From the IMG/VR virus record IMGVR_UViG_3300032204_000004: DNA of 46,966 nt, one strand, 5' to 3'. Both the position numbers and the translations under genes were made by a program. The notes under the pieces were generated by a model. It was not told where the DNA came from, searched no databases, and saw only the letters and a program-made list of their open reading frames with translations. This DNA is from a virus. How positions within the stretch are numbered: the stretch's first letter is position 1; each line of letters starts with the position of its first letter. Positions 1,232-37,407 of this stretch are shown here, piece after piece.

Positions 1232-1720
1232 ATGGCACAATACTCCTTCAATAACACCAATGCGGGAACGCAGCAGAATCTGTCGTCCTCGTTTAAGACT
1301 ATCAACCTTGTTACCGCTGCGACTGGTGCAACCACCCTTCGCCGTGGCTGGATTTACGAACTCGAGGTCGGTGCTGACAACGTCCCGAACGCAACGGATT
1401 GCCCAATCAATTGGGACATCTCGTCGCAGACGGCAGCGGGCACCATCACCTCCAACACCCCAAACCCAATCGATCAGGGTGGCGGTGATGCTGCAGCGCT
1501 TTTGACCTATGGTTCAAACGCAACGGCCGAAGGTACGATCACAGCCAACTCGTCGGTATTCTACCTTCCACTGAACCAGCGCGCTACGCAACGCTGGATC
1601 GCTCGTGATCAATCTTCGTGCTTGATTGTTGCGGCGGTCAACCTTAAGGGATTTGCACTCCGCGCAAAATCTCCGAACTACGCCTCGACGGTTGGCGCAA
1701 CCATGTTTGTTCAGGAATAA
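1232..1720 (+). CDS. hypothetical beta-rich protein, paralog-like to 46072..46692
   Basis: Track ORF 1181..1720 trimmed to ATG 1232, which follows GAAAGG. The C-terminus (SSCLIVAAVNL...ATMFVQE) parallels QQICINLNAV...NMFWTEQ. Confidence 0.7.
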   Translation: MAQYSFNNTNAGTQQNLSSSFKTINLVTAATGATTLRRGWIYELEVGADNVPNATDCPINWDISSQTAAGTITSNTPNPIDQGGGDAAALLTYGSNATAEGTITANSSVFYLPLNQRATQRWIARDQSSCLIVAAVNLKGFALRAKSPNYASTVGATMFVQE

Positions 1721-1729
1721 GGAGCTACT

Positions 1730-2011
1730 ATGACTGTCACTCTTGAAACTCGCCAACAGGCTTATGACAAGGCCAAGAAAGCGTATGATGATGCAGTAGC
1801 GGCAAATAAGAAGCTGCCGCGTTCACAGCGCGCACCGCTGCCTGATCTTCCAGAGCCTCTGGTTATCCCAGCCGATGGCATTGCGTCGAAAGACGTAAAC
1901 GCTACTGATGTTCGTGCCGTTGATTCGGACACTGGCATCTCTAGCGGTTGGAGCAAGTCCGAAGCAGAAGCCAAGGATGCGCTTTCGAGCGCAATTCTGG
2001 ACGCTCAGTAA
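1730..2011 (+). CDS. hypothetical protein
   Basis: AAGGAG lies 6 nt upstream of the ATG. 93 aa. Its stop overlaps the next start. Confidence 0.65.
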   Translation: MTVTLETRQQAYDKAKKAYDDAVAANKKLPRSQRAPLPDLPEPLVIPADGIASKDVNATDVRAVDSDTGISSGWSKSEAEAKDALSSAILDAQ

Positions 2012-2310
2012 TGCTACGGGCCGAAGGCTATAGCATCATCACTTCCCCCGGTGAACGTGACAAAGAACACGACACGTTCACCTGTGCCCATTGTAACGCA
2101 ATCACCTTCACCAAATCGGGGCTCAACGGCCCGTTAGAGGTGGCTGTGATTAAGGTCGATGGGTCGGTTGAGATGAAACCTGCCGCCTTTTGCCGCAACT
2201 GTTTCCGTCACATCTGCCCTAGGTGTGACGGAAAGGATTGTGTTCCGCTTATGAAGAAAATCGAATGCGAGGAAGTTCAATCTCGCAAGCTGCTCATGCC
2301 TTGGGAATGA
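2011..2310 (+). CDS. Cys-rich (zinc-ribbon-like) small protein
   Basis: Track ORF 1948..2310 trimmed to ATG 2011 (TAATG overlap). Contains CAHC ... CRNCFRHICPRC ... C motifs. Confidence 0.6.
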   Translation: MLRAEGYSIITSPGERDKEHDTFTCAHCNAITFTKSGLNGPLEVAVIKVDGSVEMKPAAFCRNCFRHICPRCDGKDCVPLMKKIECEEVQSRKLLMPWE

Positions 2311-2311
2311 G

Positions 2312-3079
2312 ATGTTCGGAAACGATCAATTTACCACTACCCTACTTCACTGTGATGGGGCTAATGGTGGTACAACCTTTACTGACAATTGTGCGGGCGT
2401 AGCGGCTCACAGCTGGTCGCGTGTTGGTACGCAATCCACAACGGACACGTCTCAATTTGTATTCGGCACAGCATCACTTCGGGCTGCGACAGCCAATGCA
2501 CAGATTGCGACAGGATACATAAATACAGCTTCTAGTACTGATTTTGACGTAGGTTCGGGAGATGCTACTTGGGACTATTGGATTCAGTTTAACGGAACCG
2601 GTGATGCCGGTACTAATGGTATTAGCTTTTTTCAGAAATGGGGTGTAGTAGGCCAACGCTCATTTAGTCTTGCATTTTTCAGTGGCAATTATCAGTTCAA
2701 CTGGACCACTGATGGAAGCACAACCAAGACGACATCTTACGCAGCCTCTACTCCCTCAACAGGTCAATGGTATCATCACGCTTGGGTGCGAACTGCTGGG
2801 GCGGTCAAGTTTTATCTAAACGGCACATCACTAACCTCAGCTGGAACTGCGATTAGCACAGATGTAATCTTTGCTAGCACTACTGCCTTAGGCTTTGGCG
2901 GAGGTGCAGGTGGCGGTTGGGCTTCGACTAATGGTTGGCTTGATGAAGGCCGCTTGTCAAAAGGCACCGCCCGATGGACCGCAAACTTCACCACACCAAA
3001 TGAACCCTATGACGTTCCCGTATTCCAACGTCCTTGGTGGTGGGATTATGATACCGGTGTACAGCAGGTGTCATATTGA
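2312..3079 (+). CDS. LamG / concanavalin A-like lectin domain protein (candidate receptor-binding protein)
   Basis: The pattern HCDG..TTFTD, DATWDYWIQF, QWYHHAWVR, VKFYLNG, WLDEGRLSKG is typical of Laminin_G_3 jelly-roll proteins. Confidence 0.6.
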   Translation: MFGNDQFTTTLLHCDGANGGTTFTDNCAGVAAHSWSRVGTQSTTDTSQFVFGTASLRAATANAQIATGYINTASSTDFDVGSGDATWDYWIQFNGTGDAGTNGISFFQKWGVVGQRSFSLAFFSGNYQFNWTTDGSTTKTTSYAASTPSTGQWYHHAWVRTAGAVKFYLNGTSLTSAGTAISTDVIFASTTALGFGGGAGGGWASTNGWLDEGRLSKGTARWTANFTTPNEPYDVPVFQRPWWWDYDTGVQQVSY

Positions 3080-3852
3080 AACAGATACAGCATCAGACTA
3101 GCCTCACCACGCTACCAGTACCTACGGCAGCGACGAATACCAACGCCGGTATTCCGTGGATGGTTGCGTGGACGCCACCGTTCTTCCCGAAGAAGATGCC
3201 ATCGCAGTTGATGCAGACTGAGATGGAGGTGTTGACACCTGATACATTACCTGCTGGTATCTCTGGTATTGCTTGGATGAAAGGTTGGGAGCCGCCATAC
3301 TTCCCGTTGCGCGTTAAGCCTGAGCTAATGCAATCGGAAATGGAAGTGTTAACTCCTGACACACTTCCAGTTCCAAATTCTGGTCTTTCTTGGTGGCGCC
3401 CATTCGATCAACCTGACCAGCGCAAGGTTCCAGTTCAGCTAATCCCAACCGAAGCTAAAACACTCTACCCCGGATCGTTGCCTCCTCCTATTTCTGGACA
3501 CGCTTGGAACCGTAAGTGGGAGGATCCATATTTCCCAAAACGGGTGAAGATTGAGTTGATGCAAACTCAAGCCTTCCCAACACCTCCATCGACGCTCCCA
3601 ACCAAAATCGCTGGTATGGCTTGGCGTGTTGCGTGGGAGCTACCGACATATAAATGCTACGATCAATTTGGCCTTCAATTCAACTTCCGGGTTAACTTCA
3701 TCCCATCCAACGTTCCATCGGCTTGGTGGTACGCACCATTCGATCAACCGAAACAGGTTAAGGTGCCTGTTGAATTACAAATGACTACGGTGCAAACTCT
3801 ACGTCCATATCCATACCAATTCGCGCGTGGATATATCATAGGACCAGCTTAA
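3076..3852 (+). CDS. tandem-repeat protein (5-6 copies of a ~39-aa W/P-rich unit)
   Basis: TTG start overlaps the previous stop (TTGA) and follows AGGTG. Repeat units: G(I/L)(A/S/P)W..(A/G/K)W(E/T)PP(Y/F)FP...(E/Q)LMQ(T/S)EMEVLTPDTLP. Confidence 0.7.
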   Translation: MKQIQHQTSLTTLPVPTAATNTNAGIPWMVAWTPPFFPKKMPSQLMQTEMEVLTPDTLPAGISGIAWMKGWEPPYFPLRVKPELMQSEMEVLTPDTLPVPNSGLSWWRPFDQPDQRKVPVQLIPTEAKTLYPGSLPPPISGHAWNRKWEDPYFPKRVKIELMQTQAFPTPPSTLPTKIAGMAWRVAWELPTYKCYDQFGLQFNFRVNFIPSNVPSAWWYAPFDQPKQVKVPVELQMTTVQTLRPYPYQFARGYIIGPA

Positions 3853-4223
3853 TGTCAGAAGAAAAGACCCTTGATGTAAACGCCGTGATTTTGCGGGAAT
3901 TGGTCACAATCCGCAAACTTGTCAGCGAAGCCCTATTCGCCATGCGCGAAGCTGAGGCTGAGGTTCCAGAAAAGATGCGACGGTTTATCATGTACATGCA
4001 CGATATGCATGACGTGAAGAATCTCTACGACGAACATGGCCTTCCGTGCCCCGGCCACGTCCTCCGCGAAGTCGAACGCTGTGACGATCGCCTGCGCCAA
4101 ATTCTCGAGAGCCTCCACACCGACGGAGGTGCATTTGAGAAGGTCCGCGCCGAAATGGCCAAGGACCCGAATAACCGCTACGAGCACACCCGGCAACTAG
4201 CCAAACCACAGGAGCCAAAATGA
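3852..4223 (+). CDS. hypothetical protein
   Basis: TAATG coupling. 123-aa helical, charged ORF. Confidence 0.65.
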   Translation: MSEEKTLDVNAVILRELVTIRKLVSEALFAMREAEAEVPEKMRRFIMYMHDMHDVKNLYDEHGLPCPGHVLREVERCDDRLRQILESLHTDGGAFEKVRAEMAKDPNNRYEHTRQLAKPQEPK

Positions 4224-4423
4224 AACAGGGTCGAGCAACTACCTCAATGGTTGGGTCAACCAAAGTTGAGCCCAAATCTCGCGCCGTCAATCCCGGTGCA
4301 GTATCGGAGATCGGCATTCATCAAGTCCGCACCACATCACTCCCGATGTATGAAGGCCGCGGACTTGAGGCGCCGATGAAGAGCGAGACGAGTTATAACA
4401 AAGGTTCACAAGGCAAGCACTGA
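4220..4423 (+). CDS. hypothetical small protein
   Basis: ATGA overlap with the previous gene. AGGAG upstream. 67 aa. Confidence 0.55.
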   Translation: MKQGRATTSMVGSTKVEPKSRAVNPGAVSEIGIHQVRTTSLPMYEGRGLEAPMKSETSYNKGSQGKH

Positions 4424-4434
4424 AAGGATCAATC

Positions 4435-4644
4435 ATGGACTATGAACAAGTAAAAGCTTTGCTCTATATCTGGGCAAATACCTCTGGGCATCCGCCGCTC
4501 AAGTATATCAACGCGGCTGCCATTGCTGAGTTGAAAGAAATCAATGACTCGTTCGCGCCAAAGAATTCGGCAACTCAGGCAATCCCGTCGGCAACTGAAA
4601 CAACTGATGAAACGGATGACGACGAAGGAGATGATAATGAGTAA
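4435..4644 (+). CDS. hypothetical small protein with acidic C-terminal tail
   Basis: AAGGA upstream. 69 aa, ending TDETDDDEGDDNE. Confidence 0.55.
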   Translation: MDYEQVKALLYIWANTSGHPPLKYINAAAIAELKEINDSFAPKNSATQAIPSATETTDETDDDEGDDNE

Positions 4645-19919: not shown

Positions 19920-21135
19920 ACGTCCGCTGTCCTGTCTTACGATCCATCCCCACCGCCTTTAACATTCCCGAATTTTGCATCACGTCGATAACCCGCATCA
20001 CAGAATGGAGCGGGAGACGTTCGCGCGCGAAGTTAACAATCCGCTGCTCTCCAACTCCCTGACCCCGATCGCTGGTTAGGACGAAGTGTTTGATTTCGTC
20101 AAGGGCTTGGCCATCAGCGTTGGACGAACCGGCTTTGAAGATTTCTGGCATCGCGCTTTCGGCTTCAACCAACCAACCCAATGCGCGGTCGAAATCCTCC
20201 TTCATCAGGATCAGCGTGTTCGATCGATCAATCGCAGAGATCATCGATAGCTTATAAAGATGAGCCCTTCGTCGAGTGACATAGTGAATGAGCTTGGGAT
20301 GGGAAGGAACAGGGAGTTCGCCTTTTCCTCGCCAGTCATTGACCGCGTCTCGATAATCTTCAGTGACTTCGAATTCCCCGTTGAGCGTATTGATAATACG
20401 TAGGTCGTGTTCGAGCGAAGTGGAATGGTTGATTGTCTTTGGGGCGAAATCGTCTCCGAGGATTCTTTCATCGCTGAACACCATGATTAGGCGGGAGGTG
20501 AAGCCTTGGTCCCATGCGCCTTCGGGCATGAACTTGAGGAGGTTCGAGGGGGTGCTGCCGCAGAGCATGTTTAGTTGAGGGCTTTTGATTTTGATATTCA
20601 AGTCGCGGGTGCGGCGAGTTTGGCTATACGGATCGGGATCGTAGAAGGCTGAGAGCCCCGCGATCATCTCATCGTCATACTTGCTTACGAAAGCGCCAAG
20701 CTCATCAGCAGCAATGAACATAGAATTATATTCGAGAGGAGCATCAGGCAGACGAACAACCATTCTCTTTGCAACCAGAAGTGCGTCAACCAAGCTAGCG
20801 AAAGTAAGACTAACAGGAGCAAGATGAAAGTCAGGAAGATCATGAACATAGGAACGGGCCTCGCGAATGGTTCGGGTCTTACCCACGCCGGGATGACCGA
20901 GGATTAGGATATACATATTTGGATAGAGTGGGCGTGAAGTCCGCACCCACACCTTCTGTTCCAAGACAGCCGCTATCGCGCTAATCGCAGACCACTTGCG
21001 GAATAGCTTCGGGCTATCCAGTGCGTCGGTTTGTTGTACGAATGCGTCGATCCAAGAGGTCAGCTTCCGGGACCCGCGTCCTTTTGTCTGGCCCTTTGTA
21101 GTCTTGGAGTCCGTTTGGATTTTTTGATGCATCAT
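19888..21135 (-). CDS. P-loop NTPase, putative replicative helicase (DUF3987-like)
   Basis: Walker A (LGHPGVGKT) and Walker B (MFIAADELG). Start taken at ATG 21135; the track's GTG 21144 is also possible. Overlaps the polymerase 3' end. Confidence 0.6.
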   Translation of the reverse strand: MMHQKIQTDSKTTKGQTKGRGSRKLTSWIDAFVQQTDALDSPKLFRKWSAISAIAAVLEQKVWVRTSRPLYPNMYILILGHPGVGKTRTIREARSYVHDLPDFHLAPVSLTFASLVDALLVAKRMVVRLPDAPLEYNSMFIAADELGAFVSKYDDEMIAGLSAFYDPDPYSQTRRTRDLNIKIKSPQLNMLCGSTPSNLLKFMPEGAWDQGFTSRLIMVFSDERILGDDFAPKTINHSTSLEHDLRIINTLNGEFEVTEDYRDAVNDWRGKGELPVPSHPKLIHYVTRRRAHLYKLSMISAIDRSNTLILMKEDFDRALGWLVEAESAMPEIFKAGSSNADGQALDEIKHFVLTSDRGQGVGEQRIVNFARERLPLHSVMRVIDVMQNSGMLKAVGMDRKTGQRTFKVAERDPDL

Positions 21136-22531
21136 ACTTTCCACGATTCCAGCCGACCTGACAGTCGTATGGTATTTCTAGCGTTCGACCATTGGCCAGT
21201 TTAATAGGGGTGATGAGATTGGCTTTAAGTTGTGGAAGAATGATTTCTTCGAGTTCTTGTGGGTATTGGAATGTGAGCGCGTCGTGATCTTGCATCATGA
21301 GGGTGGCGATGTTGAGTCGCCAAATGTTTAGCATCGCGGTGTTGACGATGTCGGCAAGGGAGCCTTGGGGGTCGAATGCGATAGCCGCACGGATGGTGTC
21401 TGGATCATTGCGGCGTCCCCAAAAATATCGCTTCCGGCCCATCAACGAGACGAGGTACCCTTTCGTCCAGACTTGGTCTTCGACCCACTCTTGCCAGCGT
21501 TGGTGCGCGGGGAAGGCCGAGAAGTATTTGGGCTGGAAATTCGAAACCACCCCAACGGGAAGCTTAGATTGCTGTGCGAGAGTGGTAGGTCGTCCGCCGT
21601 AGTTCGACCCGTGGCCGAGCTTCTTGCACATGAAACGGTAAGTGTAATGTCGGTAGAATGGGGTCTCCGCAATATCTTTATCTCTTGCAAAGTCTCCGGT
21701 CCATGAAAGTTCTGGCCAACAAATTCTTGCAACTGCTGTATGAACGTCCCCACTGTCAACCGCGTCGAGGTAGGTGGGGTCGTTGAAGAGGTTGTATTCG
21801 ATTGCGCCGACGACATAGGATTCTCCTGATTTTGCGTCGAATTTTGCGAACTTCATTCCGGAGTCGGAGATGAATATGCTTCTTAATGACTCTTCGATAT
21901 TCTGGAGATTCCCCCCGGTTCCATATTCACTGTAAGAAGATGAAAACCTACCTGTGTCAGTCCCTGCAATATTGTAAGAAGTTCGCATTCGTCCATCCGG
22001 GTCGATATCGGTTTTAAGGACTCCGATTTTCTTAGCAATCTCTCGCATAGTGGATATGTGAGCGATGATTGGCCGGGCGACGAGATACCCCTCCATCTTC
22101 TCCAAAGCGTTGCGATCAACGGTCGGTCTCCCTTGCTTTTTAATCGGTGGGATATTGAGTTTGGTGTAGAACAGGTGTTGTAGATCGGCATTAGAGCGCC
22201 AATTGAAGTGGGGCATACCCACCCCTTCGAGGACGAGACGAGACAACTGCCGTTCAAGAATGTCGAGTTGGTTGTAGAACTCATCCATAACCTCCATCTT
22301 ACGGACGTTGTCAATTTTGACCCCGCGCCCGTTCATTTCGAGAACGGGGCCTTGAAGGGCGCGGGAGAAGGCGTAGGTCTTGGCTTCGTGGGAGGTGGCT
22401 TCGTTTTCAGAGAACTTGATTGCTTCAAAGACCTCACGCGTGATACATACGTCAAGGCCGTTGTAGACCTGCTCACGCTCAAAGCCGGTTAGGGCAGAGG
22501 GTTCGATTTCAGCGGTTTTGATTATTTTCAT
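21014..22531 (-). CDS. family A DNA polymerase, C-terminal part (Exo III motif + polymerase domain)
   Basis: Contains QVYNGLD (YxxxD), DTGRFSSS...GGNLQNI (motif A region), KLGHGSNYGG (motif B) and MQDHDAL (motif C). Start taken at ATG 22531. Confidence 0.9.
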   Translation of the reverse strand: MKIIKTAEIEPSALTGFEREQVYNGLDVCITREVFEAIKFSENEATSHEAKTYAFSRALQGPVLEMNGRGVKIDNVRKMEVMDEFYNQLDILERQLSRLVLEGVGMPHFNWRSNADLQHLFYTKLNIPPIKKQGRPTVDRNALEKMEGYLVARPIIAHISTMREIAKKIGVLKTDIDPDGRMRTSYNIAGTDTGRFSSSYSEYGTGGNLQNIEESLRSIFISDSGMKFAKFDAKSGESYVVGAIEYNLFNDPTYLDAVDSGDVHTAVARICWPELSWTGDFARDKDIAETPFYRHYTYRFMCKKLGHGSNYGGRPTTLAQQSKLPVGVVSNFQPKYFSAFPAHQRWQEWVEDQVWTKGYLVSLMGRKRYFWGRRNDPDTIRAAIAFDPQGSLADIVNTAMLNIWRLNIATLMMQDHDALTFQYPQELEEIILPQLKANLITPIKLANGRTLEIPYDCQVGWNRGKYDASKNPNGLQDYKGPDKRTRVPEADLLDRRIRTTNRRTG

Positions 22532-22533
22532 TT

Positions 22534-22788
22534 TCAATGTAACTTAGAACATTGTGGACAAGTAACATCATTACCATTCCTCCGCCACCCTATTTCCGCA
22601 AACATTTTTGGTGCCATTTCTTCTATTAAAATTCTTATAGCATTGTCTACATTTCCAGCATCATAAGCAATACCTACCATTCCTTGATCCTTGTGCAAAA
22701 CACACCAGTCACTTTGTGATTTACATATACAACATTTATATGCAACCATAGCTATATGTGGAGGTTTCGGTTTACCAATAACCCACAT
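22534..22788 (-). CDS. AT-rich Cys-rich mini-ORF splitting the polymerase gene
   Basis: 84 aa with CCIC...CPQC. TAATG overlap with the upstream ORF. Its stop lies 2 nt before the polymerase ATG. Composition is visibly AT-rich compared with both flanks. Confidence 0.6.
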   Translation of the reverse strand: MWVIGKPKPPHIAMVAYKCCICKSQSDWCVLHKDQGMVGIAYDAGNVDNAIRILIEEMAPKMFAEIGWRRNGNDVTCPQCSKLH

Positions 22789-23891
22789 TACGAATCCCTC
22801 TTAATCGTATCAGCTTCTTTCCGCATATGTTTCCAACTTCCATGATCAGTATACACCGATCCCAGATAACCTAATCCTTTGAGACTTTCCGGCTGCCTTG
22901 CGTGGTGGAGGAGCATCGTATCCTCCGCCGCCCCAAGCGTCCGAATTCCGTACGAACGGTAGAGGAATTGGATGTCGTAGACTCCGTTTTGGAACAACTT
23001 GCGGATTGATGCATCCTCAAGAACTCCACGGATAATTTGCCAACACTCATATTCAAGCTCTGAAGTAGGCCAATAACTTCCTCCCGGCTTTCGGGAGTCA
23101 TCGAACGGTATAACGATTGCAAGGTCTCCTCGGACGCCGAAGCCAATACATGTAACCCTTGTTCCAGATGTTTCGATGTCAACAGACAATAGCCCTTCTG
23201 GAGCCACAAAGCGGCCCATGAAGTCTCGAATATCGTCAAGGGTTGGTTCGATCCAGATTTCACAGTTCGGCCTCCTTATTTCCTGAAACGCTGATTCTCG
23301 CTTGGCTTTGACTAAATCCATTATGGTCGTGGGTCGAAGCTCCCATTGTCGAAGCACAGCAGAAGGGTGGTAAGTAGGCAGAAGCTTAAAGCCACCAACA
23401 GTGTGTGTAGAGAGGAGCGTCGTGCCTCGTAGTTTAGTGACTCCACTTTTGCCAGTAAGCGCCCAGAGAGCAGTATTGCCCAGAGCAATGATGAGATTTG
23501 GATCGTGGTCAACAATTTCGTCCCCTAAGCGATCGAGTTCGGATTGGTATTGGGCGAGGAGGTATTTGCCTTTGATGAGTGCAGGGTATCCGGCTACGCC
23601 TTCACGGCTGCCGCCACAGATATTGTTGAGATCGTTGGCGTGGGGGTGGAATTGGAAAACGTTGGTACGGAAAACGGTTGCGGAATGATTGTGCCAGACT
23701 TCGTCAACGGCTGTTGCGTCACCGTTGTTGTAGAACCTCGAAATGAGTGCGCGATCTTCGATTGTGAGGCTGATAATCTTGGCTTCGTCAAGCTGGCGCA
23801 AAAGCTCAATGCCAGAAGGCCCGACAAAACAAGAATTAATTTTTTGTTCATTTGCACCTTTTGCCTCCCCCACGATAACTATAGGTGTCAT
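22788..23891 (-). CDS. DNA polymerase N-terminal part: UDG-like domain + 3'-5' exonuclease motifs Exo I and Exo II
   Basis: UDG family 4-type motifs: GEAKGANEQ...CFVGPSG, FRTNVFQFHP, TYHPSAVLR. Exonuclease motifs: VDIET (Exo I), FQNGVYD (Exo II) and EDTML. Confidence 0.8.
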   Translation of the reverse strand: MTPIVIVGEAKGANEQKINSCFVGPSGIELLRQLDEAKIISLTIEDRALISRFYNNGDATAVDEVWHNHSATVFRTNVFQFHPHANDLNNICGGSREGVAGYPALIKGKYLLAQYQSELDRLGDEIVDHDPNLIIALGNTALWALTGKSGVTKLRGTTLLSTHTVGGFKLLPTYHPSAVLRQWELRPTTIMDLVKAKRESAFQEIRRPNCEIWIEPTLDDIRDFMGRFVAPEGLLSVDIETSGTRVTCIGFGVRGDLAIVIPFDDSRKPGGSYWPTSELEYECWQIIRGVLEDASIRKLFQNGVYDIQFLYRSYGIRTLGAAEDTMLLHHARQPESLKGLGYLGSVYTDHGSWKHMRKEADTIKRDS

Positions 23892-24328
23892 ATCATTCTT
23901 CCCAGATTGTCACGTTCTCTTTTACTAGCATGTTCCGAGGTATGGCAATATGAACATAAAATTTCTAAATTTTCAGGAATGTTGTTTGTTCTATCTTGAT
24001 CCTTATGATGTATGTGATGATTCATATCTTGTCGAACAAATCCACATCTTTCACAAATATGTAAATTACGATTCAAGGATTTCATTAGTGCTTGGTTATG
24101 TCGTCTTATAGTACGTTTTGATAATCCTGTAACATGAGCATTCTTATTGCCATATTGGGCACCTTGTTTCCATCCAATTATATTACAGGAAGCAGCAAAA
24201 ACTCTAATTGTTGATACGTGACATGAAAGATAATCAGCTATTTCATGTTGATTCATATCAAGATCGCGTAGAGCCATAATAGCTTCTTTTCTTTGATCAA
24301 AGCCTAGCTGCTTCCAGTATAGTTTCAT
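23859..24328 (-). mobile_element. HNH homing-endonuclease cassette (HNH ORF plus recoded copy of the target 5' end)
   Basis: AT-rich block. It lies between the leftover copy at 24325..24360 and the recoded copy at 23859..23891. Confidence 0.6.
23888..24328 (-). CDS. HNH homing endonuclease with N-terminal HTH
   Basis: Track ORF trimmed to ATG 24328. HNH motif: CERCG...HHIHHKDQDRTNN..ENLEILCSYCHTSEH. ATGA overlap with the downstream polymerase gene. Confidence 0.8.
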   Translation of the reverse strand: MKLYWKQLGFDQRKEAIMALRDLDMNQHEIADYLSCHVSTIRVFAASCNIIGWKQGAQYGNKNAHVTGLSKRTIRRHNQALMKSLNRNLHICERCGFVRQDMNHHIHHKDQDRTNNIPENLEILCSYCHTSEHASKRERDNLGRMI

Positions 24329-24360
24329 TTGGCCTCGCCGATTATGACGATGGGTGTCAC
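24325..24360 (-). pseudogene. leftover original 5' end of the UDG-exonuclease gene (mini-ORF VTPIVIIGEAK-stop)
   Basis: GTG ACA CCC ATC GTC ATA ATC GGC GAG GCC AAA TGA duplicates MTPIVIVGEAK at 23859..23891. GTGA overlap with the upstream gene. Its stop overlaps the HNH ATG. Confidence 0.65.
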
Positions 24361-24614
24361 TTACACTTTTCCTCAACGAGGACAGCATAGCCACGCACAT
24401 CTTCCCAATGCTGCTTCGAGAGGGACTTGCCGGAGAGGATACGCGAGAACTTGAGAGCAATCATATCCATCGCCTCGCGTTCGATATACGACAGTCGATG
24501 CCAGCCTACAGCGGACTGGAAAACGGTTTTGATCCGCTGGGAGAGTTGAGCATTCTCCTCAAACGATCCGTGGGTGGTTTCACGTTCAGCGAGGAGCGGG
24601 TCGCGTTCGGTCAT
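24357..24614 (-). CDS. small all-alpha protein, MazG-like / DUF6378-like
   Basis: The HGSFEENAQ...EREAMDMIALKFSRIL...WEDVRGYAVL pattern recalls phage nucleotide pyrophosphohydrolase N-terminal domains. Call is from memory only. Confidence 0.4.
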   Translation of the reverse strand: MTERDPLLAERETTHGSFEENAQLSQRIKTVFQSAVGWHRLSYIEREAMDMIALKFSRILSGKSLSKQHWEDVRGYAVLVEEKCK

Positions 24615-24665: not shown

Positions 24666-25127
24666 TTAGTCCTCAACCGGTGCGGTCTTGCCGATGTTGG
24701 CATAGACCGACGAACCATCCTTGGACGCGGTGTGAACAATCGCACCAACGAACTGGCAATTTGGCGAGTTATCAATCGCCTGTGCCGTCGTCTCGCCATC
24801 ATTCGCCGCGCCGCAATGGACGAGGAAGCTTTGAAGGCGATACAACGAATCCTCGGTGATATAGAAGGTAATCTTCTGCGTCACCTCGGTCAGCTTCCGC
24901 ATGGAGCCATCCGACTTGGTGGCCCAATCCTTCAAAGCTTCCTCGTCCACGTCGTCGAGAGCCGATACGCACTTGACTTGGAATTCGTAGAACGGGGTCT
25001 GCTTCTCCTTCGACTTGTCAAAGCGAGGGAGGCCTTGAATAGACCAAACGTAGGAACCGACTGGGAGCGGTTTCGGGCGATCAATTTGTGTAGCTGGTTT
25101 TGAGAGGATGTCTTCGAATGTTGTCAT
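24666..25127 (-). CDS. putative ssDNA-binding protein (DUF669-like)
   Basis: Track ORF trimmed to ATG 25127. PLPVGSYVWSI motif near the N-terminus. Lies in the same module as the Sak4-like ATPase. Confidence 0.4.
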   Translation of the reverse strand: MTTFEDILSKPATQIDRPKPLPVGSYVWSIQGLPRFDKSKEKQTPFYEFQVKCVSALDDVDEEALKDWATKSDGSMRKLTEVTQKITFYITEDSLYRLQSFLVHCGAANDGETTAQAIDNSPNCQFVGAIVHTASKDGSSVYANIGKTAPVED

Positions 25128-25128
25128 T

Positions 25129-25401
25129 TTAGGTTTCCGGGTTGGTTGCTGGTTCGTATGTAGCCTCAAAAATGTCAGGTTTACATGGGTAAACTTCTCC
25201 CTTTACTCCTTTGATAATCCAATCTCCAGCATCAGCTTTCATGATACCTTCGAGAGTTTCGATAAACATATTTGGAAAGTTGATAGTAACCTTTCCGTGT
25301 TCTATCAAATCAACAATCCACTCTGGGTCCTCGATTTGATATACATCACCTGACCATTTGAAAGCTTCAATGGTTATAGGCTTTTTGCGATAGTATCCCA
25401 T
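25129..25401 (-). CDS. hypothetical small protein (AT-rich gene)
   Basis: 90-aa ORF with GDWIIKGVKGEVYPCKPDIFEATYE, a motif common in small phage proteins. Confidence 0.6.
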   Translation of the reverse strand: MGYYRKKPITIEAFKWSGDVYQIEDPEWIVDLIEHGKVTINFPNMFIETLEGIMKADAGDWIIKGVKGEVYPCKPDIFEATYEPATNPET

Positions 25402-26255
25402 TAGGATGCTTTCTTTACGGGTTTGGGAGCGGTGGTGATAGACTTTGGCGCCTCCCGTAGTACGCCAAAGAATTCGGCGAGGCCTGTTTCGATTGGGTAC
25501 GATTTAGCCATCGCAAAGGGTTTGGGATTTTTCAGGTCGATGAGGGCGGTTGCGGCGGTTTGGAGAGTCCTTTTGCCACCCTTGCTTTCACAGAGCGCGA
25601 CAGAGTTAAAGTAACGCGGGATGACGGGACCGAGGGCAGACCCAACGCTTGTTGGATAACCTTTCCGTGATCCGTCAGGGTTTTCGATATATCGGATGTG
25701 ACTTGTGACGATAACATTTGTTCTAAATGCTTCGCTTGTGAGCAGGGCCAAGACACTCTCAATTGCGTTTTGCGCATCTTTGTAAACCGCCCTTGCATCG
25801 TACTTGCCGTCCTTACCACGTACAGCCAGAGGCTCCCTAAAGGCAAAGGCCGCATCTGACATAAAGGTGAGGGAATCGACCACAAGTATACATTCTGGCC
25901 CCCATTCTGCTGGAACGCCAAGGTCAGTTTCAACTCCATCTTCCGTGTACTTCCAACGGTCAAGGAGCTTAGTAGCTTCGACAAATGCCTTGGGGGCTCC
26001 CGCAATAACAGGTCCTTCGGGTGAAGATTTATACTTATCTCGAAGTGTCCGGAACTCAACATTGTCCACCTTATCTGGGCACTGGTTGGTGACGAAGGCT
26101 TTGAGCGGGTCTAAGCCGTTGTCGAAGTCTAAGATGCGGAGTTTGTATCCTGCGGCGACGAGGGAGGTAAGGGCGCCGGTTTTTCCGCTACCGCTGTCGC
26201 CTTCTATCAAAAGTTTTGTGAATTCGTTGGATTGGTGTTTGGAGAGGGAGGGCAT
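25401..26255 (-). CDS. RecA-fold ATPase, AAA_24 / Sak4-like recombination protein
   Basis: KLLIEGDSGSGKTG (Walker A), RILDFDNG, ILVVDSLT (Walker B). Confidence 0.7.
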   Translation of the reverse strand: MPSLSKHQSNEFTKLLIEGDSGSGKTGALTSLVAAGYKLRILDFDNGLDPLKAFVTNQCPDKVDNVEFRTLRDKYKSSPEGPVIAGAPKAFVEATKLLDRWKYTEDGVETDLGVPAEWGPECILVVDSLTFMSDAAFAFREPLAVRGKDGKYDARAVYKDAQNAIESVLALLTSEAFRTNVIVTSHIRYIENPDGSRKGYPTSVGSALGPVIPRYFNSVALCESKGGKRTLQTAATALIDLKNPKPFAMAKSYPIETGLAEFFGVLREAPKSITTAPKPVKKAS

Positions 26256-26431: not shown

Positions 26432-27348
26432 CTGTCCTCCGGAGCTAGCTTGATAAAGTCCGCCTCAAGGAACCGTTCGCGAACAGATGGGTCTTTGGAG
26501 CAGACGCCACGAAAACGACAGCCACCAAACTTGTCACAAGCGGTGTCGTTCATTGGCCAATATCCCACTGTAGCATAGTTCTCAGCGGATGTCAACCAGA
26601 ACTTGAGATCGTCGAGCCATTCGTGTGTTTGGGCAGGTGTGCGGAAGGTGAAGCCTCGGACGTAGTTGTTGGGCTTTTCGAGCAGGACTTGCGCGGCGTC
26701 GATTACGACACCTTTGACTACAGTGTTGAGAACGATCTGGCCCGCGAGGGTGTAGAGGGACATTTGGTTGTTTGGACTATACTGGTCGAAGTAGTATGAT
26801 CCAGGCGTGGTTGTGGTCGTCTTGCGATCCATGACGAGGGTTTCGCCATTGAAGTCAACCACACGGTCGAGATGGCCGCTTAGGAGGAATGGTTGGTTGG
26901 TTCCGCTTTGAGGTCCAAATGGAAGTTCAAAACGGAAGCTCACCTCAGTCGCGGCCTTCCCACTCTCCAACACCTTTGTCTGTGCGGGGTCGTCCTTATA
27001 CCGATCGAGATAATCAATCACCAATGAAAGAAGGGTCCGTGGGTTTTTATACGCACCAGCGCGGCTAGTAATATCAGGGTCCCAATCGTGGATACGAATA
27101 AGAAGGTCTCGAACCGCGTCCAATAGCGCGTCATCATGCTTTTTGCCAGCCAATTTGTGAGCATCGTATTCCTCAAGGGCTTTGTGATATTCAATCCCGA
27201 AACGGAGGTGAACGGAGTCGTCCTTTGGAGCCCAGCCTTCGATCATTATATAGTAATACAGTTTTGGGCACGTCTTGAGATAGCCCAAGCTGGTACTATC
27301 AAAAGCGTATTGTATATTAGTTCCCGGAAGAAATGGTGAAATTACCAC
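26407..27348 (-). CDS. Cas4-like PD-(D/E)XK exonuclease with 4-Cys cluster
   Basis: LKTCP (first Cys), HLDRV, LVMDRKT (DxK), QMSLYT (QxxxY), CDKFGGCRFRGVC. The start is uncertain: GTG 27348 matches the duplicated native N-terminus, and the track gives GTG 27429. Confidence 0.75.
   Translation of the reverse strand: MVISPFLPGTNIQYAFDSTSLGYLKTCPKLYYYIMIEGWAPKDDSVHLRFGIEYHKALEEYDAHKLAGKKHDDALLDAVRDLLIRIHDWDPDITSRAGAYKNPRTLLSLVIDYLDRYKDDPAQTKVLESGKAATEVSFRFELPFGPQSGTNQPFLLSGHLDRVVDFNGETLVMDRKTTTTTPGSYYFDQYSPNNQMSLYTLAGQIVLNTVVKGVVIDAAQVLLEKPNNYVRGFTFRTPAQTHEWLDDLKFWLTSAENYATVGYWPMNDTACDKFGGCRFRGVCSKDPSVRERFLEADFIKLAPEDRWNPLRPR
26567..26595 (-). promoter_or_regulatory. candidate internal sigma70-type promoter
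   Basis: Minus strand TTGACA-17 nt-TACAGT, located inside the exonuclease gene. Confidence 0.3.
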
Positions 27349-27796
27349 CGAGGTAACTTGATCCTTTTTCGCTGATATAATTCCAGACTGTGTTTCCAGA
27401 GAGATGGAGTCTTTTGGCGATTTCGTCACGGCTTAATCCTTGTTCATATAATGGTTTAATTCGTTTCCAAGTCTCTTGCCTTCGCCTTTCACCAACCAAA
27501 GGATCGTCTATTTTTCGTCCTTTAGATATCATGTCATTTGTATTATCTTGAGCAGTTCCTAAGAATAAATGATTGACATTTATACAAGCTCTATTATCAC
27601 ATTTATGTAGTACCATTTGATTTTGATCGTGTTCTGGATTTGATGCAAAATATACTATTCGATGCGCACGTTGTTTTACCTCACGACCAAAACTAATTGG
27701 GATATATCCTTTGGCATTTGGCCTCAGATGACTTACGAGACAGCCGTTTATATTAATGGAATTAGCTACAAGCCAATCAGCCTTTTGCTTAACCCA
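27304..27796 (-). mobile_element. HNH homing-endonuclease cassette (HNH body plus recoded copy of the exonuclease 5' end)
   Basis: AT-rich block lying between the resident copy (27797..27844) and the recoded copy (27304..27348) of the same peptide. Confidence 0.6.
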
Positions 27797-27844
27797 TGCG
27801 TATTGGATGTTGGTGTTGAGGAGGAACGGGGAAAGGACGGTCAT
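27317..27844 (-). CDS. HNH (HNH_3-type) homing endonuclease fused to the first 16 codons of the exonuclease gene; C-terminal HTH
   Basis: GGAGG lies 5 nt upstream of ATG 27844. HNH motif: AHRIVY...LHKCDNRACINVNHLFLGTAQDN. HTH: LSRDEIAKRLHLSGNTVWNYI. Confidence 0.8.
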   Translation of the reverse strand: MTVLSPFLLNTNIQYAWVKQKADWLVANSININGCLVSHLRPNAKGYIPISFGREVKQRAHRIVYFASNPEHDQNQMVLHKCDNRACINVNHLFLGTAQDNTNDMISKGRKIDDPLVGERRRQETWKRIKPLYEQGLSRDEIAKRLHLSGNTVWNYISEKGSSYLGGNFTISSGN

Positions 27845-36770: not shown

Positions 36771-36913
36771 GCCTTCTCCTCCACTTTCAAATAATCCACA
36801 AGTTTCACATATTGGCCGTTGGCCTTCTTGATCCAAAGCTGGCCGTGGTAGGTGACGATGTGTGCGCCGAAGGGCAGGGCTTCAAGGCAACGGATTGCGA
36901 ATTTGGGTTTCAT
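36767..36913 (-). CDS. small ORF (48 aa) below the track threshold
   Basis: Hand translation: MKPKFAIRCLEALPFGAHIVTYHGQLWIKKANGQYVKLVDYLKVEEKA. GGAG upstream. ATGA coupling downstream. Confidence 0.5.
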   Translation of the reverse strand: MKPKFAIRCLEALPFGAHIVTYHGQLWIKKANGQYVKLVDYLKVEEKA

Positions 36914-36949
36914 GGGTTAGGCTCCAAGTTTGTGTTGCACTATCGGCAA

Positions 36950-37177
36950 TCAGTTTAACTCTTTCCGTTCAGCATCATTCCAACATTTGACATAGATGAT
37001 AGCGCGTTTGGTATAGATGGCTTTGCGACTGAGTAGTAATTCAGCTGCTTCTAGCATTTCAGGAAATAACTTAGAACTGATCAGCATATCATGTTTAAGC
37101 ATTGCTTTAACTACATCTGTTAAAGCAAAGTCTAACGTACATTCCGCAACAGTCTTAAACCCAAGTGGTTGGTTCAT
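36950..37177 (-). CDS. hypothetical small protein (AT-rich gene)
   Basis: ATG 37177 lies 5 nt after a perfect AGGAGG. The track start 37195 is the alternative. Confidence 0.6.
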   Translation of the reverse strand: MNQPLGFKTVAECTLDFALTDVVKAMLKHDMLISSKLFPEMLEAAELLLSRKAIYTKRAIIYVKCWNDAERKELN

Positions 37178-37191
37178 ATTAGCCTCCTGCC

Positions 37192-37407
37192 TCATTGCCT
37201 ATGGTGCAACGGAGTTTGGGTCGCCTGATCCATTTTCCCATCATACCACACACGCCGGTGATTGTCAACCACTATCTTCCACCGATTATTCCACGTCTGT
37301 CCCTCAAGGTCCCCTAGCGTAGTCCCTGATGAGTCCCTCATAGCCTGATTATCAAATCCAACCACATCCACCACACATTCCGCATGTTCGTCGGTTGGTC
37401 TGTCCAT
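37192..37407 (-). CDS. hypothetical protein, first gene of the leftward operon
   Basis: 71-aa ORF with a weak RBS, preceded by 400 nt of noncoding DNA. Confidence 0.5.
   Translation of the reverse strand: MDRPTDEHAECVVDVVGFDNQAMRDSSGTTLGDLEGQTWNNRWKIVVDNHRRVWYDGKMDQATQTPLHHRQ

Follow-up and report, generated by a model that had tools for sequence, protein, structure and literature searches.

The family A DNA polymerase of the virus record IMGVR_UViG_3300032204_000004 (46,966 nt; 'the window' below means this whole stretch of DNA) is encoded by two open reading frames (ORFs) and not as a single polypeptide, and a third, AT-rich ORF of 84 codons lies between them. The most probable reading, to which a probability of about 0.8 is given, is that the window encodes a two-subunit family A polymerase and that the 84-codon ORF was inserted late at the seam where both genes meet. 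In the original prediction it was this ORF that had split the polymerase gene. However, the same break is present in 76 of 76 related loci, 21 of which have an empty seam, including the closest relative, and it recurs in the cultured Caulobacter phage Kuura. Since the split is present in relatives that lack the 84-codon ORF, the ORF is a late, lineage-specific arrival at a pre-existing boundary. The features of the region, in the order in which they are read, are:

22788–23891, minus strand: N-fragment, 367 aa; uracil-DNA glycosylase (UDG) domain, VDIET (Exo I), FQNGVYD (Exo II) and DTML
22795–22802, minus strand: Shine-Dalgarno-like AAGAGGGA within the last N-fragment codons (K-R-D), 6 nt before the ATG of the 84-codon ORF
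22534–22788, minus strand: 84-codon AT-rich ORF; Cys-rich (CxxC...C...CPxC) with a putative zinc-ribbon-like product; lineage-specific cargo at the seam
22532–22533, minus strand: 2 nt spacer (AA) between the TGA of the 84-codon ORF and the C-fragment ATG, counted in the 257-nt insertion
21014–22531, minus strand: C-fragment, 505 aa; leader of ~17 aa, Exo III (Y23-N-G-L-D27), thumb/palm/fingers, and motifs A, B and C

The anatomy first described for this region was seen again in the sequence: an N-fragment with a UDG-like domain, Exo I, Exo II and DTML, a C-fragment that opens with an Exo III-type YxxxD motif followed by motifs A, B and C, and an AT-rich, Cys-rich ORF between them with TAATG upstream and its stop 2 nt before the polymerase ATG. 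Pfam agrees, with UDG (PF03167, E 1.6e-12) in the N-fragment, where DNA_pol_A_exo1 is matched at profile positions 23–123 of 173 only, and DNA_pol_A (PF00476, E 1.1e-32) in the C-fragment. On the PHROG 17 polymerase profile the N-fragment covers positions up to 799 and the C-fragment those from 809. The phmmer matches of the C-fragment are structure chains of the Taq, Bst and Klenow polymerases, and the UDG domain of the N-fragment matches Thermotoga TM0511 and family-4 UDG structures. The C-fragment protein begins with MKIIKTAEIEPSALTGFEREQVYNGLDVCIT. Within the TAATG overlap the N-fragment stop lies at 22790–22788 and the ATG of the 84-codon ORF at 22788–22786; the TGA of the latter is at 22536–22534, and the C-fragment ATG follows at 22531, 2 nt further on. 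No promoter or terminator signals were found on the coding strand.

Position and age of the break

Contiguous UDG-Exo-Pol homologues are 775–830 aa long, share at most 37 % identity with the window lineage and are continuous through the point at which the window gene is cut. Mapping of blastp coordinates on 120 fused homologues revealed that no residues are lost at the break; a median of 18 are extra, ~8 at the C-terminus of the N-fragment and ~17 at the N-terminus of the C-fragment. Alignment of the X-joined halves with fused forms, a comparison that the original prediction had proposed for locating the break, places it in a loop that follows a conserved 'SWK' and precedes the 'YNxxD' helix of Exo III. 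On the fused homologue P0010, whose exonuclease domain (PF01612 envelope) covers residues 202–373, the break falls at ~342–354. The proofreading domain itself is therefore cut, after Exo II and before Exo III.

All three Exo motifs are thus present but divided. Exo I (D238, E240) and Exo II (N302, Y305, D306) are invariant in 17 N-fragments; likewise, Exo III (Y23...D27) and the motif A, B and C residues (D232, R299/K303/Y311/G313 and H416/D417, respectively) are invariant in 17 C-fragments. The distribution of Exo I and Exo II on one polypeptide and of Exo III with the polymerase motifs on another, as first proposed, is borne out by the sequence and by Pfam. With Exo II and Exo III divided by the cut, a proofreading site would therefore have to be composite. 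Both halves are under purifying selection when compared with the related locus L023 (related loci carry L numbers throughout): 14 nt differences result in 2 aa changes in one half, and 61 nt differences in 6 aa changes in the other. Family-4 UDG motifs (G-E-A-x-G, residues 8–12; H-P-[SA], residues 175–176) are also invariant in 17 relatives, and on this ground the UDG-like domain may be competent in catalysis, in contrast to that of the N4-type UDG-PolAs.

The break is old and widely shared. In 20 IMG/VR relatives (58–76 % identity) the N-fragments end and the C-fragments begin at the same residues, and a wider scan gave the figure of 76 split loci out of 76, the count covering those loci that show both halves. 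The halves are separate ORFs in every clade relative examined, and they are adjacent and co-oriented at all loci examined. L029, the closest relative (79 % identity), and L030 have the same break and empty seams. The closest cultured relative, Caulobacter phage Kuura (OQ067476; L001), is cut at the same place, its halves being gp29 ('hypothetical', 39 % identity) and gp26 ('DNA polymerase', 33 %), with two unrelated small ORFs between them. Kuura is a plaque-forming isolate (PMC9959647), and because it forms plaques the split arrangement is seen to support replication. Kuura_029 (L001 2219–3328) bears the annotation 'hypothetical protein' and represents the UDG-exonuclease half of the Kuura DNA polymerase; a text search of the published Kuura description returned no mention of a split polymerase.

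In a tree of both types, 10 split forms including Kuura fall on one side of a branch and 20 fused forms on the opposite side (Shimodaira–Hasegawa-like approximate likelihood ratio test support, 100). One old fission is the most economical reading of this topology. The split form is also abundant: the best 120 of 4057 stand-alone N-fragment-like clusters (E ≤ 1e-20, length range 201–643 aa) are all 345–388 aa long with 60–79 % identity.

Rejoining of the halves into a single chain, at the RNA or protein level, by a group I or II intron, a split intein, bypass or a frameshift, would make the split one of DNA only. Introns and inteins are frequent in phage polymerase genes, according to one report (PMC10580990), and a single TAG is all that separates the halves, which share a frame, in L016 and L021. 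Even so, rejoining can hardly be credited. Rfam searches gave no match in the insert (22300–23000, E ≤ 1) or in the inserts of four relatives, and 255 of the 257 nt belong to a conserved ORF, leaving no room for a ribozyme core. The ~18 extra residues at the break are too few for a split intein, and no intein-like residues occur at the junction. The frame of one half relative to the other varies: most relatives have +2, and some have 0 with an in-frame stop, thus there is no conserved recoding signal. The absence of an intron, argued at first from the tight packing of the genes, and that of an intein, argued from a lack of intein motifs, are both upheld on these grounds.

It is likewise very improbable that the halves work independently of each other, the N-fragment as a separate UDG/exonuclease-like protein and the C-fragment as a polymerase without exonuclease. 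Exonuclease-truncated PolAs do exist, CCPol being one, but it is also reported that PolAs depend on the exonuclease domain to be stable (PMC10201439). That Exo I, Exo II and Exo III are invariant throughout a deep clade, Kuura among its members, would not be expected of independent proteins, nor would the adjacency and coupling of the two genes at all loci examined.

Turnover at the seam

The 76 seams differ widely in what they contain. Twenty-one are empty, with an ATGA or TAATG overlap or 2–3 nt between the halves, 4 hold short spacers without an ORF, and 51 hold ORFs, which fall into ~35 mutually unrelated families. Nine seams contain nucleases of homing type:

L043, L048, L051, L062, L102 and L011: seam ORFs of the HNH_3 family, E 7e-9 to 2e-10
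L059 and L060: seam ORFs of the endonuclease VII type, Endonuclease_7 E 2e-17
L008: LAGLIDADG seam ORF, LAGLIDADG_3 E 2e-5

The remaining seam ORFs match Pam3_gp59 or no known family. Inserts in the relatives are mostly AT-rich, and overlapping stops and starts couple them to both neighbours. Occupancy also turns over between close sisters, as branch lengths of 0.03–0.07 divide two empty seams and three different ORFs. Comparison of 20 junctions gives the empty seam as ...AAG AGG GAT GA[ATG A]AG ATC..., where AAGAGGGA precedes the C-fragment ATG. The original prediction had suggested a mobile element at this position. As a statement about the seam this stands, given that it is a homing-endonuclease site in relatives; for the window's own ORF a decayed homing element is not supported, as that ORF has no nuclease match and an HNH profile probability below 1 %.

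Two relatives have seams of an individual kind. In L011 the HNH gene (1145–1606) starts with MAII, resembling the usual C-fragment start (MKII/MARII), while the C-fragment (1587–3143) starts with MALKKIN and overlaps the end of the HNH gene by 20 nt. The nuclease here seems to have taken the start of the host gene and supplied a replacement. In L082 the seam ORF (4088–4522) encodes 144 aa without a Pfam match; by its size it may be an enzyme and not a small ORFan.

The 84-codon ORF and its product

The 84-codon ORF has a GC content of 36.5 % (22 % at third codon positions), compared with 51.4 % for the window, and 1.2 % of 255-nt segments are as AT-rich. Relative to the empty seam the insertion comprises 257 nt; it is ORF-precise, bounded by AATG and located exactly at the start codon of the C-fragment. 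The AAGAGGGA at 22802–22795 now precedes the ATG of the 84-codon ORF, which takes over the ribosome-binding site of the C-fragment. The 84-aa protein is absent from the 76 related seams, while an identical protein is encoded on 10 contigs and lies between the halves in the six places listed, from six samples. The ORF is compositionally foreign and probably a recent arrival.

The product has CxxC pairs at C19/C22 and C77/C80. The original prediction had proposed a profile search with this protein; such searching yielded one homologue and no nuclease family. When 1.84 billion proteins were searched exhaustively with phmmer, a single clear homologue emerged, P0003 (80 aa, full-length, 40 % identity, E 1.5e-13). 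Conserved between the two are MW.I.KP, KCxxC, SDWC, APKMF.E.GW and CPxC, and the cysteines C19, C22, C29, C77 and C80; with a full-length homologue and conserved cysteines, the 84-codon ORF is therefore more than a chance ORF. The gene for P0003 is in a run of small phage ORFs with no polymerase adjoining. Zinc-ribbon Pfam matches on P0003 are all below threshold (E 0.011–0.19), and the look-alikes in the ESM Atlas are small viral proteins without known function, a few of them with zinc-ribbon families. From these sequence features the 84-aa product is predicted to be a small zinc-ribbon-like phage protein with four to five cysteines, probably accessory cargo at the seam.

Other searches with this protein were negative. 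No Pfam family was found in it, and no nuclease family even at E ≤ 1. Comparison of the 84-aa family by hhalign with the HNH protein of the window and with that of L011 gave probabilities of 0.2–0.3 %, i.e. no relation. Neither DNA nor protein searches with the region and the 84-codon ORF gave a match in the GenBank phage collection, and a word-indexed protein search with the ORF returned the self match alone. Long TPR proteins returned by phmmer (P0002, P0004–P0006 and P0009) were rejected as a repeat-summed artefact, the similarity consisting of 5–7 short stretches on TPR_12 repeats. A match to PHROG 8303, which has no assigned function, was set aside as too weak (E 1.2e-3).

Could the 84-aa protein instead be a co-opted third subunit or assembly factor that bridges or regulates the halves, its position reflecting its function? 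Its ORF is translationally embedded between the two halves, the protein is identical on the 10 contigs, and it has weak similarity to a Cys-rich seam ORF in L006. A co-opted factor had been one of the original suggestions. It is nevertheless quite unlikely, as the same spot holds nothing in 21 seams, the closest relative among them, and ORFs of ~35 unrelated families in 51 others. Additionally, no polymerase gene adjoins that of the sole clear homologue, and the foreign base composition points to a recent arrival.

The 84-codon ORF would be explained differently as what is left of a decayed homing endonuclease (its zinc-finger or DNA-binding portion, for instance), or as a nuclease-free selfish cassette hitch-hiking on the repair of double-strand breaks made by nucleases that cut close to the seam. 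Intact HNH, endonuclease VII and LAGLIDADG genes occupy the seam in nine relatives. The replication module of the window that contains the ORF has two HNH genes as well, one of them 1.1 kb upstream, and the AT-rich composition of the 84-codon ORF resembles that of both. CxxC pairs flank many HNH motifs too, and the differences between the window and L023 cluster in patches flanking an identical 84-codon ORF. Against this, the protein matches no nuclease family even at the permissive threshold given above, the alignments with two HNH proteins are below 1 % probability, and P0003 does not share the His that follows the third Cys. A conserved full-length homologue is also what would be expected of a functional protein, not of a remnant. 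The window and L023 are near-identical outside the two patches, so the identity of the ORF is not special. The decayed homing element of the original prediction thus found no support, and an origin of this kind is unlikely; late insertion of an ordinary small phage gene is preferred.

The comparison with L023 extends over ~6 kb, which are near-identical to the window save for the two patches flanking the 84-codon ORF. One, at 21800–22331, has 61 differences (~11 %), and the other, at 22800–23336, has 14 (~2.6 %); the ORF and the next 200 nt are identical in both. The patches suggest recombination or gene-conversion tracts around the seam. Special conservation of the 84-codon ORF was considered and rejected, since the genomes are near-identical everywhere else.

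Five islands of at most 40 % GC are present in the window (22461–22900, 23741–24395, 25071–25445, 27241–27835 and 36881–37210). They correspond to two HNH genes, the 84-codon ORF and two other small ORFs, and all five are probably recent insertions. In L024, a near-identical strain with 2 differences from the window in 3600 nt, a Trp codon of the upstream HNH gene (23888–24460, minus strand) has become a stop codon (TGG to TGA) at window position 24171. The change looks like homing-endonuclease decay in progress.

Proposed assembly of the halves and comparison with known split genes

The following course of events would account for the arrangement. An ancient fission, most simply one event, would have divided a once contiguous UDG-Exo-Pol gene in the loop that separates Exo II from the Exo III helix, leaving one chain with UDG, Exo I and Exo II and another with Exo III and the polymerase, plus ~18 new residues at the break. 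The two chains would reassemble non-covalently, giving a composite proofreading site. Ancestrally the halves were probably coupled in translation through an ATGA or TAATG overlap, with AAGAGGGA embedded in the K-R-D codons at the end of the N-fragment gene. This boundary, inside an essential and conserved operon, has since become a hotspot at which HNH, endonuclease VII and LAGLIDADG genes and small ORFs were inserted, replaced and lost. The 84-codon ORF would have entered as a 257-nt cassette at the C-fragment start codon and would use the old ribosome-binding site; the genes would be co-transcribed, and termination-reinitiation at the stop of the 84-codon ORF would feed the polymerase half. 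The 84-aa protein most likely acts outside the polymerase, in an accessory or host-directed role, without nuclease activity.

Several points weigh against this account. After the insertion the C-fragment has no recognisable Shine-Dalgarno sequence of its own. The AlphaFold2 model of the 84-aa protein has a low predicted local distance difference test (pLDDT) score of 45.8 from a 3-row alignment, and it is the conserved cysteines by themselves that suggest a zinc ribbon and hence zinc binding. The pairwise similarity to the Cys-rich seam ORF of L006 (95 aa), although weak (E 6e-4), means that some of the seam proteins could be related after all. The association of the halves and their exonuclease activity are predictions from sequence. 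Finally, the single origin is read from an unrooted tree in which the fused forms were sampled by similarity.

A further, tentative idea, which on balance is doubtful, is that the seam serves as a dedicated expression slot, precise to the start codon, in which ORF-only cassettes seize the downstream ribosome-binding site and hand ribosomes on. If so, the slot would lock accessory genes, possibly for anti-defence or host takeover and the 84-aa protein perhaps among them, to the expression of the polymerase, and homing nucleases would drive the exchange of cassettes between co-infecting phages.

Whichever role the seam has, the split bears on annotation: in a large and mostly uncultured group of podophages, a stand-alone 'uracil-DNA glycosylase' or 'hypothetical' gene is half of the replicative polymerase. 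In this group a family A polymerase is found in nature with a proofreading site to which two chains apparently contribute. The system is a tractable one in which to ask what lets an essential gene survive being broken up and how a gene seam comes to attract homing nucleases and new small genes, given that Kuura can be cultured and that seams of both kinds, empty and occupied, occur naturally by the dozen. As for the 84-codon ORF, the outcome is deflationary; it would be ordinary accessory cargo and is not the cause of the split.

Split family A polymerases have already been described in LUZ24, S-SBP1 and MEP401, and the general pattern is a recurrent one. Distinct in the window lineage are the cut between Exo II and Exo III, the presence of the UDG domain in the exonuclease fragment, a clade of such depth and size, and the documented turnover at the seam. 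In the S-SBP1-like cyanophages of T7 type, PolA has undergone fission to adjacent exonuclease and polymerase genes; the new termini are exposed to solvent, and the halves are inferred to reassemble non-covalently (Czernecki et al. 2023, PMC10201439). However, a frameshift gave rise to that fission, which is described as lying between domains and has no ORF between the halves; it is found in a T7-like subfamily without UDG (PMC10201439). The MEP401-type phages likewise have PolA in two ORFs with one small ORF, of no assigned function, between, an arrangement kept in most of the related metagenomic genomes. Their break is inside the polymerase domain, though, such that ORF13 carries the exonuclease and the N-terminal part of the polymerase, and the authors left the question of an intron open and report no survey of how the seam varies.

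Outside the polymerases, the nrdA gene of Aeromonas phage Aeh1 is an essential gene that a mobile endonuclease has fragmented at a conserved site; the active enzyme is rebuilt out of two polypeptides, and the break has given rise to new terminal tails that help them to reassemble (Crona et al. 2011, PMC3045599). The enzyme is a different one, and a free-standing endonuclease gene, mobE, is located between the pieces, whereas at the seam of the window there is no nuclease and nucleases occur in relatives only. By analogy, nrdA-mobE is the best model for how the split and the ~18 extra residues may have arisen. The domain order is shared with the UDG-PolA fusions of N4-like cluster 17 and of SPO1 type, which have an N-terminal family-4 UDG-like domain followed by exonuclease and polymerase (PMC10201439). 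These are single-chain proteins, and the window lineage matches other, uncharacterised fused UDG-PolAs, at no more than 37 % identity.

The LUZ24-like Pseudomonas phages (Bruynoghevirus) also carry a family A polymerase in pieces, termed 'exonuclease subunit / part I' and 'part II'. A table in the description of UFV-P2 shows the LUZ24-like pieces separated by eight to ten small ORFs and endonuclease genes (PMC3890496). In LUZ24 itself gp25 holds all three Exo motifs (D-x-E, N-x3-D and Y-x3-D), so that the cut is at a domain border and not through the proofreading domain; there is no UDG domain, and the lineage is unrelated to that of the window. The LUZ24 locus (NC_010325; L107 4000–6306) comprises gp25, 'part II' (gp34) and a 93-aa 'DNA polymerase' (gp36), with an endonuclease VII gene (gp35) between gp34 and gp36. 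The LUZ24 polymerase thus appears to be in three pieces.

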